From positions 1 to 36,229 of the forward strand of contig CAYIBD010000002.1 in NCBI GenBank assembly GCA_964361655.1: DNA of 36,229 bases, read 5' to 3'. Below the pieces are notes generated by a model. It worked only from the letters and a program-made list of their open reading frames with translations. It had not been told where the DNA came from and did no database searches. Positions 33,467-35,560 of this stretch are shown here, one piece after another; the stretch's first letter is position 1, and every line of letters begins with the position of its first letter. This DNA comes from an uncultured Candidatus Saccharibacteria bacterium (GTDB lineage Bacteria > Patescibacteriota > Minisyncoccia > Sungbacterales > SURF-37). A program made the translations under genes and the position numbers.

Positions 33467-35560
33467 TCAACTGTTGCGATATTTCCGGATTTTATCTCTA
33501 ATTCTCGCCGCCAGCTCAAAATTCATCTCTTTGGCCGCCCGCTTCATCTCCCGCTCCAGGGCCAAGACCATCTCCCGGGTGGGCCCAGCCGGCAAAAAGA
33601 ATTCTTCTTCGGACTTGGGCGCTAATTCTTCTAAAAGCGATTTTCGGATTTCTTTTTTGATGGTTTCCGGCGTGATGTCGTGCTTGCGGTTATATTCCTC
33701 CTGAATCGTGCGGCGCCGAGCGGTTTCATCTATGGCCTTTTCCATGGATTCGGTCACCCGGTCGGCATAGAGGATCACCGTGCCGTCGGTATGGCGGGCC
33801 GCGCGGCCGATGATCTGCAAAAGCGTGGTCTCGTTTCGGAGGTAACCCTCTTTGTCGGCATCGAGGATGGCAATGAACGAGACCTCGGGCAGATCAAGAC
33901 CTTCCCGCAAGAGATTGATGCCCACCAGCGCCTCGTGCTCGCCCTGGCGGAGCTTTTTTAAGATCTCCGGGCGGTCGAGCGTTTTTACTTCGGAGTGGAT
34001 GTATTCGGACTTGATGCCGGCTTCGGAAATGTATTCGGCAATGTCTTCGGCCAGGCGCTTGGTCAAGGCCATCACGAGCGAGCGCTCCTTTTTTCCAATC
34101 CGCTTCCTGATTTCGGCGATGACGTCCTTGATCTGATTTTTCGTCGGCCGGACTTCAATCTTGGGATCAAGCACGCCGGTGGGCCGGATGAGCTGCTGCA
34201 CTATGCAGGGCGATTCGAAAGACGCGAATGCTTCACGCCAATGACGCGAATCTTTTCTATTCGCAACATTCGCATGCATTCGCATGGTTCGACCCTGCTC
34301 ACCACGGGCATTGGAGTCGCGTTCTGGACAACCCGAAGCTGACTTCAAGAGCTCGTATGGGGAGGGCGTGGCTGAAACAAAGAGCACGCGGTTCACTTTT
34401 TTGTTGAACTCTTCAAATTTGAGCGGCCGATTATCCACGGCCGAAGGCAGCCGGAAGCCGTATTCAACCAGCGTCTCTTTCCGGCTGCGATCGCCCGCGT
34501 ACATGCCGCGAAGCTGCGGCAGCGAGGCGTGGGACTCGTCAATAATCGTGAGAAACTCGTCGCCAAAACGATGGCGATAGTAGTCGATCAGGGTAAAGGG
34601 CGGGGAGCCCGGCGGCCGGAATGAGAGCTGGCGCGAGTAATTCTCAATGCCGTTGGTATAGCCGGTGTGCTCCAGCATCTCCAGGTCAAAATTCGTCCTT
34701 TGCTCCAGGCGCTCGGCTTCGAGGGGCTTGCCCTCCTTTTTAAATTTTTCGACCTGTTCCTTCAGCTCCTGTCGGATATTGGCTATAGCCAGCTTCAACT
34801 TCTGGCGCGGCGTTACAAAGTGTTTGGCGGGGAACAACTTGTAGAAGCGGATCTCCCGCGGATTGCTATGCGGATCTAACGCGGATCTTGTGAGCGTCAT
34901 GCGTGCAATGCGCCCCTTTTCAAGTTCGAGCTTTAGGACTTCCTCGGCCGAGGGGAGAAAAATTTCAACCACGTTCTCGCGCACTCGGAAGTGGCCCTGG
35001 CGGGGGTCGAAGTTGTTCCTTGTATACTGTAGCAATACCAGCGAGCGCGTGAGCTCGCGGAGGTTCATGAGAGCTCCGGTCTCTAACTTAATCGCAACTT
35101 TCTCGTACTCTTCCGGATCGCCGATGCCGTAGATGCAGGAGACCGAGGCCACGATCAAAAGGTCATCCCGAGTCAGAAGTGATGCGGTCGAGGCGTGCCG
35201 AAGCGAATCAATCAAGTCATTGACCTTGGCATCCTTTTCTATATAGGTATCGGTGCGGGGGATATAGGCCTCGGGCTGATAGTAGTCGTAGTAGGAGACG
35301 AAGTAATGGACAGCGCTTTCCGGAAAAAATTCTTTGAACTCTTGGTAGAGCTGGGCCGCCAGAGTTTTATTGTGCGAGATGACGAGGGCCGGTTTTTGCA
35401 GCCGCTCGATGACGTTGGCCATGGTGTACGTCTTCCCGCTGCCCGTTACGCCAAGGAGCGTCTGGTACTGAGCGCCGGAGCGGAAATTAACCACGAGCTT
35501 CTCGATCGCTTGAGGTTGATCGCCGGTGGGTTGGAATGTTGACCTGATGTGGAAAGCCAT
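33467..35560 (-). CDS. uvrB: Excinuclease ABC subunit B
   Basis: Walker A is GVTGSGKT. It also has YYDYYQPEAY, DESH, GINLLREGLDLPEV and the C-terminal UVR motif (NFELAARIRDKI). It carries an extra ~43-aa segment between YELLKSAS and IVQQLIRPTG compared with E. coli UvrB (YELEKSGGDVVDQVVRPTG). Confidence 0.96.
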   Translation of the reverse strand: MAFHIRSTFQPTGDQPQAIEKLVVNFRSGAQYQTLLGVTGSGKTYTMANVIERLQKPALVISHNKTLAAQLYQEFKEFFPESAVHYFVSYYDYYQPEAYIPRTDTYIEKDAKVNDLIDSLRHASTASLLTRDDLLIVASVSCIYGIGDPEEYEKVAIKLETGALMNLRELTRSLVLLQYTRNNFDPRQGHFRVRENVVEIFLPSAEEVLKLELEKGRIARMTLTRSALDPHSNPREIRFYKLFPAKHFVTPRQKLKLAIANIRQELKEQVEKFKKEGKPLEAERLEQRTNFDLEMLEHTGYTNGIENYSRQLSFRPPGSPPFTLIDYYRHRFGDEFLTIIDESHASLPQLRGMYAGDRSRKETLVEYGFRLPSAVDNRPLKFEEFNKKVNRVLFVSATPSPYELLKSASGCPERDSNARGEQGRTMRMHANVANRKDSRHWREAFASFESPCIVQQLIRPTGVLDPKIEVRPTKNQIKDVIAEIRKRIGKKERSLVMALTKRLAEDIAEYISEAGIKSEYIHSEVKTLDRPEILKKLRQGEHEALVGINLLREGLDLPEVSFIAILDADKEGYLRNETTLLQIIGRAARHTDGTVILYADRVTESMEKAIDETARRRTIQEEYNRKHDITPETIKKEIRKSLLEELAPKSEEEFFLPAGPTREMVLALEREMKRAAKEMNFELAARIRDKIRKYRNS
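34205..34333 (-). repeat. In-frame 129-nt insertion in uvrB with a ~94-nt palindromic core (34205..34298)
   Basis: It encodes GCPERDSNARGEQGRTMRMHANVANRKDSRHWREAFASFESPC, which has no counterpart in E. coli UvrB. The DNA contains GCGAAT/ATTCGC in both orientations at least 5 times. There is a central hairpin (GCGAAT-CTTTTCT-ATTCGC on the plus strand), an outer pairing (GACGCGAATGC with GCATTCGCATG) and terminal GCAGGG...CCCTGC ends. Confidence 0.55.

Follow-up and report, generated by a model that had tools for sequence, protein, structure and literature searches.

The uvrB gene of an ultra-small groundwater bacterium, a Sungbacteria-like member of the Patescibacteria, contains an extra in-frame block of about 42 codons that is very probably a non-autonomous miniature copy of a Patescibacteria family of palindromic mobile repeats, tolerated in a linker of the encoded protein. 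The gene lies in the 36,229-nucleotide stretch of DNA analysed here (the window; contig CAYIBD010000002.1 of assembly GCA_964361655.1), which belongs to a genome that we call G000 (47 contigs, 668,566 bp, G+C 58.7%, completeness 93.8%); labels of the type G001 denote its relatives, C denotes a contig and L an extracted locus. The in-frame insertion in uvrB, which behaves like those of the palindromic elements of Rickettsia, is real and well supported. Below we describe the insert, its family, the state of the same site in other genomes and the other explanations that might be given for it.

The uvrB gene (33467..35560, on the minus strand, as are all features of the window given below) is intact and encodes a protein of 697 amino acids that retains Walker A (GSGKT), DESH, SATP, the beta-hairpin YYDYYQPEAY and the Helicase_C, UvrB and UVR domains. 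In a phmmer search of the PDB its match to UvrB (E about 1e-234) is broken into two segments: residues 3-405 correspond to residues 5-402 of B. caldotenax UvrB, our comparison sequence, and residues 449-691 to residues 403-651, while residues 406-448 have no partner in the solved UvrB structures. Insert-free relatives have a 9-residue spacer at this place, from YE to EQ.IRPTG (for example LLKS-KPH-VV), and the G000 protein is longer by 42 residues. Measured against these empty-site orthologues, the extra block spans 34205..34330 (42 codons, C411..C452, CPERDSN...FESPC), with edges that are uncertain by a few nucleotides, and it is bounded by the Cys codons TGT and TGC, one at each edge (34205-34207 and 34328-34330). 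A first-pass annotation of the window had reported an in-frame insertion of 43 codons at 34205..34333 (G410..C452), and its coordinates, peptide, frame and codon count were all correct. The insert peptide alone matched no Pfam family, a scan of 33900..34700 matched no Rfam family, and a search with residues 404-452 among 5.8 billion proteins returned only the G000 uvrB product itself and no other protein of comparable length with this peptide. Neither a splicing domain (Pfam) nor a catalytic intron RNA (Rfam, the same interval) was found, and the UvrB protein therefore has to keep the insert.

Alignment with other copies of the family places the palindromic element proper at 34210..34320, a segment of 111 nt that runs from GCGACTCCAAT to TTCGAATCGC and is read in element frame +2 (DSNARGEQGRTMRMHANVANRKDSRHWREAFASFES). 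It begins with the left terminal unit GCGACTCCAAT (34310..34320), which fits the family terminus GCGAC[GT]C[CT]AAT. Directly after this first unit stands a nested 24-nt mini-hairpin module, GCCCGTGGTGAGCAGGGTCGAACC (34286..34309), followed by the remaining left arm, ATGCGAATGCATGCGAATGTTGCGAAT (34259..34285), with its three GCGAAT units spaced 10-11 nt apart. Next comes a central 7-nt loop, AGAAAAG (34252..34258), whose equivalent place in an element of the genome G010 is occupied by a PDDEXK_3 nuclease gene (see below), and finally the right arm, ATTCGCGTCATTGGCGTGAAGCATTCGCGTCTTTCGAATCGC (34210..34251), an inverted array of ATTCGC-type units. The arms, which form terminal inverted repeats, are 38 and 42 nt long, and copies of the element measure 79-125 nt. 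Five GCGAAT/ATTCGC units fall within 60 nt (34224..34283), and the central hairpin GCGAAT-CTTTTCT-ATTCGC occupies 34246..34264. Folded in the mRNA sense the palindrome reaches -59.8 kcal/mol (z = -3.8; one shuffled sequence out of 200 did equally well), and the insert folded as single-stranded DNA gives z = -2.2. The palindrome that had been noticed in the first pass is therefore real, since its five units, central hairpin and imperfect arm pairs were all recovered and the fold is strong; the limits then given to its core (34205..34298) have to be replaced by those of the copy alignment. Nor are GCAGGG and CCCTGC the ends of the element, as had been proposed, because their pairing involves the nested mini-hairpin and flanking gene sequence.

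The 24-nt module is also found at the same position in the copies in def and on C24, and it is absent from the canonical copies on C4, C8 and C18 and from the parent-like element of G010. Modules of 24 nt stand at the window site, at about 7952-7975 on C17 of G000 and at about 4345-4368 on C24, with related sequences in loops at C19:1783 and C24:7310; they follow the pattern GCCSGTGG-TGAGCnnnGTCGAAC-C, have a fixed place within the larger palindromic elements and act like a second-order insertion module. We considered a tRNA origin for the module and dropped it, as by eye there was no fit to a T-arm plus acceptor stem.

The element is one member of a multicopy family. A BLAST search with the insert gave two strong further matches in G000, and clustered GCGAAT units together with the terminus motif led to further copies on its contigs. 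An alignment of six copies defines the family architecture: the left terminus GCGACnCyAAT leads into three GCGAAT-type units at a spacing of 10-11 nt, after which come a short loop, an inverted array and the right terminus ATTnGnnTCGC. When a hidden Markov model made from this alignment was run over the G000 contigs with nhmmer (E<=1e-3), 18 loci were recovered, of which 16 are intergenic and two lie in frame within genes, namely uvrB and def. The first-pass annotation had made its reading depend on other copies of the core in the genome, including any inside another open reading frame, and such copies exist. The 16 intergenic copies are wedged tightly between adjacent genes, often touching stop and start codons. 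Four of the six frames of the uvrB copy are open. Of the intergenic copies, four were examined: C18 has two open frames, and every frame of C4, C8a and C24a is interrupted by a stop. Persistence within genes is limited to stop-free variants. A second repeat sub-type, with arms of the form tgatGCCAAT..GCGAAT..CTACnAAT.., was seen in G000 at C8:6660-6752, C24:7260-7360 and C31:711-807, and its arms resemble those around the PDDEXK_3 gene of G029:C2.

The second in-frame copy (G000:C17 7933-8040, which is L002 1493-1600) consists of the left half of the element plus the 24-nt module, and it lies in a variable loop of peptide deformylase, the host gene having been identified by a PDB match. The def and uvrB copies are read in the same element frame (TNAGGEPSRTMRMNANDAN and SNARGEQGRTMRMHANVAN, respectively). 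Orthologous half-copies are present in the def genes of G002, with the module, and of G008, without it, so that three genera share the insertion, and G003 def has a different hairpin at the position of the module. From this distribution we conclude that the def insertion is old and that the module is a secondary, nested insertion.

Full-length relatives of the element point to a likely parent. In G010:C6 an element at 18858-19331 has two inverted arms that enclose a frameshifted PDDEXK_3 (PF13366) gene (18920-19245); its arms had been matched to the G000 element by BLAST beforehand, and the left arm of the uvrB copy, minus the 24-nt module, is identical to the G010 left arm at 35 of 38 positions (92%). 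PDDEXK_3 genes occur in 16 of 40 relatives, in up to seven copies each, and all 12 of the other such loci that we inspected in relatives are flanked by inverted arrays of phased short repeats, with units of the GCGAAT/ACGAAT type or of the CGCAGA/CGCGGAT type. By BLAST the element family itself is present in 11 of the 41 genomes of the order that were searched, G000 included, and its distribution is patchy. Since the same arms flank the nuclease gene in G010, the uvrB copy looks like a miniature, nuclease-less derivative in which cassette arms enclose a 7-nt loop in the gene's place, a judgement made from the sequences of the two elements. A related element of autonomous type that shares these termini thus exists, and its gene, which encodes a nuclease and not a known transposase, would be a candidate for the mover of the arms.

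Whole PDDEXK_3 cassettes, arms included, were also seen in frame inside conserved proteins: in LepA at one identical site in four genomes (L131, L135, L136 and L139), and in two genomes (L132 and L134) in RecG, at a point between its DEQH motif and its TATP motif. The open frames that bear these cassettes are 518-889 amino acids long, and because they run through the cassettes the host proteins would carry a whole extra nuclease domain. Genes of PF05635 (the four-helix-bundle type of 23S rRNA intervening sequences) were considered as partners of the GCGAAT family and rejected, as both such genes in G000 (C29 367-672 and C1 15988-16278; L037 and L038) are flanked by other repeats: the one on C29 has inverted arms rich in CCAGC/GCTGG, and the one on C1 is followed downstream by tandem repeats of the GGGTTTA type; these are apparently further small cassettes.

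The uvrB site is polymorphic among the relatives. It is empty in G003, G008, G011 and G007, and G001 is insert-free too; G002 has an unrelated palindrome of GGTGAA units, and the inserts of G005 and G009 belong to the same GCGAAT family as that of G000 and are read in the same frame. An ancestral, non-palindromic loop shared by orthologues, which the first-pass annotation had named as fatal to its reading, did not appear in the alignment, where the nearest relatives are either empty or hold a different palindrome. In a UvrB tree computed with the insert segment left out, the insert states are scattered: G000 (+42 residues), G002 (+39) and G003 (0) fall in one clade, G009 (+25, GCGAAT family) is sister to G007 (0), and G005 (+28, GCGAAT family) groups with G004 (+20, unrelated) and G001 (0).

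The linker is also a hot spot. Among 77 distinct UvrBs from the wider group, 19 have an insert of at least 8 amino acids at this linker, compared with 8, 4 and 2 at three other internal sites. Most of the inserts at the linker form strong hairpins when folded, and the families to which they belong are clearly distinct and include a GGATCnnGATCC repeat and a ...RPQNDE... repeat; at least six unrelated palindrome families are represented, and the 29 different inserts found there among the relatives are all stop-free and in frame. Because several unrelated families occupy several loops, the recurrence at the linker probably arises mainly from selection that removes insertions elsewhere, that is, from a filter at permissive loops. 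In-frame palindromic inserts were seen in three other UvrB surface loops in various Parcubacteria, at about positions 228, 331-333 and 655 in the numbering of the G000 protein (L060, L062, L065, L067, L081, L033 and others), and that of L067 is a GCGAAT-type half-copy (DTNTRMHTNDTN) in another loop, again in frame +2. This frame, with its D-S/T-N... reading, recurs in copies within unrelated genes: uvrB and def of G000, uvrB of G005 and G009, and the L067 loop.

Several of the uvrB inserts have TGY at both junctions, and at the protein level a pair of Cys residues brackets the insert in 6 of the 29 insert-bearing variants of the site, with a single Cys in five more; none of the 49 insert-free variants has any Cys in the segment. 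Such a bracket might be either a footprint left at the DNA level or a staple under selection. The Cys-bracketed alleles (that of the window, L008/L051, L010/L056, L009/L052, L072 and L023) carry unrelated insert contents.

An AlphaFold2 model, run on an alignment of 47 sequences, has a mean predicted local distance difference test score (pLDDT) of 81.9 and a predicted template modelling (TM) score of 0.80. Averaged over blocks of 10 residues, pLDDT is 49-59 in the four blocks of 411-450 and 89-90 in those that flank them; the model shows two short helices within the insert, at low confidence. Foldseek aligns the model with solved UvrB structures at target-normalised TM scores of 0.88-0.92, and in the Pfam annotation the insert falls after the N-terminal helicase lobe and ahead of Helicase_C (481-590). 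From the secondary structure of the model and general knowledge of superfamily 2 helicases, we take the insert to follow the strand and helix of SATP motif III and to precede IVQQL, the strand leading into the second RecA-like lobe. The position thus appears compatible with the UvrB fold in the model, and the tolerant linker between helicase domains suggested in the first pass agrees with an AlphaFold2 confidence that is low only there and a UvrB core that is intact.

We propose the following course of events. The copies of the family are pairs of inverted arms made of GCGAAT-type 6-mers phased at about one helical turn, which in full-length relatives flank a small PD-(D/E)xK nuclease gene (PDDEXK_3, of the 'GxxExxY' type). 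One copy would have inserted into the surface linker of uvrB that joins helicase motif III to the second RecA-like lobe, and would have survived because its length was a multiple of three, its frame was free of stops and the extra residues were harmless to the fold at that place. The insert is most likely translated as a poorly ordered excursion of roughly 42 residues, and UvrB would need no function from it; such neutrality, the mobility of the element and the part of the nuclease as mobilising enzyme are presumed in this scheme.

Since the element is repeated in G000 and metagenome assemblers can misjoin at repeats, an insert of this kind might be an assembly chimera. We find this scarcely credible: the frame is open across both junctions, the flanks on both sides are colinear uvrB, analogous inserts stand at the same codon in independently assembled relatives, and an independent contig of 4,188 bp (ENA ERZ1292639, Hain_H51, coverage about 3), which is 99.8% identical to the window (7 mismatches in 3.9 kb) and encodes an identical protein, holds the identical 149-nt insert region. 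Contig L174 seemed to differ from the window by an indel of 52 nt, but its record has only a run of N there. A different kind of explanation would make the repeats elements of the repetitive extragenic palindrome (REP) or REPIN type, mobilised by a REP-associated tyrosine transposase (RAYT, a Y1 HUH transposase). REPs are likewise intergenic palindromes, and G000 does encode one Y1_Tnp protein (C26:1893-2606, 37.9 bits). However, that gene is flanked by a different palindrome of its own, TTCAACATTSAATGTTGAA, which has four copies in the genome, and not by GCGAAT arrays, and in G010 the GCGAAT arms flank a PDDEXK_3 gene instead; we therefore abandoned the RAYT link as highly improbable. At the RAYT-like locus itself (G000:C26 1853-2625, L175) a third copy of TTCAACATTSAATGTTGAA is in frame inside the gene, and the only further copy is at C23:8623. 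Co-option of the insert, either as a loop that is bracketed by Cys and held together by a metal or disulfide staple, or as an mRNA hairpin that regulates uvrB, is suggested by the unequal occurrence of Cys described above, by the strong mRNA hairpin and by the two short helices of the model. We nevertheless judge it very unlikely, in view of the low pLDDT of the insert, a peptide that has no Pfam match and is unique in the protein collection searched, Cys codons that may be a footprint at the DNA level, and insert-free relatives that do well.

Two further explanations concern the history of the site. It might be invaded repeatedly in the manner of homing endonuclease genes, if the nuclease of the element, or repair by the host at a fragile site, targets the DNA beside the invariant EQ.IRPTG-coding sequence. 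The inserts of G000, G005 and G009 indeed share family, site, frame and orientation, with insert-free lineages between them on the UvrB tree, the nuclease-bearing elements in LepA and RecG recur at single sites, and YTGYR stands at both junctions of several inserts. Still, a single target specificity is hardly to be expected of the unrelated palindrome families at the uvrB site, insertions have reached further UvrB loops as well, and the 16 intergenic copies of G000 are at unrelated places without a common flank. Nor is there a co-conversion tract around the site between G000 and G005 (co-conversion or lateral transfer of the allele was considered and rejected, as flank identity is not raised), and we regard homing-like invasion as unlikely. 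Alternatively, a single ancient insertion might have been inherited by G000, G002, G005 and G009 as an old lineage-specific loop and precisely lost in the insert-free relatives. The flanks xC...SPC-IV common to G000, G002 and G005 are in its favour, and the orthologous def half-copies indicate that copies in genes can persist across three genera. Yet the insert would have to have been lost precisely and independently five times or more, with the K-P-H/Y spacer of the outgroup restored on every occasion, and what G002 and G004 carry at the site has no relation to the GCGAAT family. Moreover, the uvrB genes of these genomes are only 65-75% identical in nucleotide sequence, yet the G000 copy retains a near-perfect hairpin and has arms that match the element of another genome at 92%. 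Descent from one old insertion consequently seems to us quite improbable.

Insertion of a miniature mobile element, followed by retention at a permissive loop, remains our preferred explanation, and several observations count against it. At the flanks of the copies neither a clear duplication of the target site nor a target sequence common to them was visible, and the intergenic copies share no duplication. No PDDEXK_3 gene was found in the 93.8%-complete genome of G000, and for this reason its copies may be fossils. The def half-copy shared with G002 and G008 means that some in-gene copies have been retained stably for a long time, as would be less expected of pure junk. Finally, the coincidence of family, site and frame in G000, G005 and G009, together with the shared flanking Cys codons, could point to a site-specific mechanism, or to a common origin followed by precise losses. 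Tentatively, a broader generalisation is possible, in which the GCGAAT-arm elements and their cousins with CGCAGAT, ACGAAT and GGTGAA units would form an undescribed class of selfish cassettes of the Patescibacteria. These would consist of a PD-(D/E)xK nuclease between phased-repeat arms, would invade conserved housekeeping genes in frame (as whole cassettes in LepA and RecG, as arms only in UvrB and Def) and would rank among the main sources of variation in protein length in these reduced genomes; recurrence at the same codon would then reflect a real insertion mechanism, with TGY as its footprint, and the Cys-bracketed loop base would be a compensation by the host.

Palindromic elements in frame within genes are known from textbooks as a peculiarity of Rickettsia, and comparable behaviour is now seen in an unrelated phylum with reduced genomes. 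We found no published description in the full-text literature of such elements in Patescibacteria, the candidate phyla radiation or Parcubacteria, or of a GxxExxY cassette. What is added here is a plausible nuclease-carrying parent, a quantified insertion hot spot in a structurally solved enzyme and natural pairs of insert-bearing and insert-free orthologues, by which the reshaping of essential proteins by selfish DNA in minimal genomes, and the neutrality of such loops, become testable. There is also a practical side, in that such inserts inflate protein lengths, split homology matches in two and mimic domains or assembly errors in metagenome-assembled genomes of Patescibacteria.

Several known systems resemble these elements in part. 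Like homing endonuclease genes and inteins, they are selfish, nuclease-linked DNA found in frame in conserved housekeeping genes, with a patchy distribution and the same site recurring across lineages; unlike them, the uvrB copy has no splicing domain, intron RNA or nuclease, and cleavage of a target is only hypothetical. With REP/REPIN sequences and their RAYTs they share hairpin repeats packed between genes, but the units and architecture differ and the single RAYT-like gene of G000 has its own unrelated palindrome. [quoted passage not shown] They differ from MITEs in that they have no transposase-bearing parent insertion sequence and no clear target-site duplication, and in that the gene between the arms of full-length relatives encodes a small nuclease and not a DDE or Y1 transposase. 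The closest parallel in behaviour is with the Rickettsia palindromic elements (RPEs; Ogata et al. 2000), as the first-pass annotation had suggested. Both are short palindromic repeats with many copies per small genome that lie between genes and in frame within unrelated housekeeping genes, and both have a preferred reading frame and occupy sites where the fold tolerates an extra loop. The likeness is one of behaviour only, homology forming no part of the claim. According to the relevant passage of PMC10969869, nearly half of the RPEs of R. conorii are within genes, compared with 2 of 18 copies here, and the elements described here differ further from RPEs in the phylum that carries them, in arms built of phased 6-mer units, and in having, among their relatives, a candidate for the autonomous form that bears a PD-(D/E)xK nuclease.

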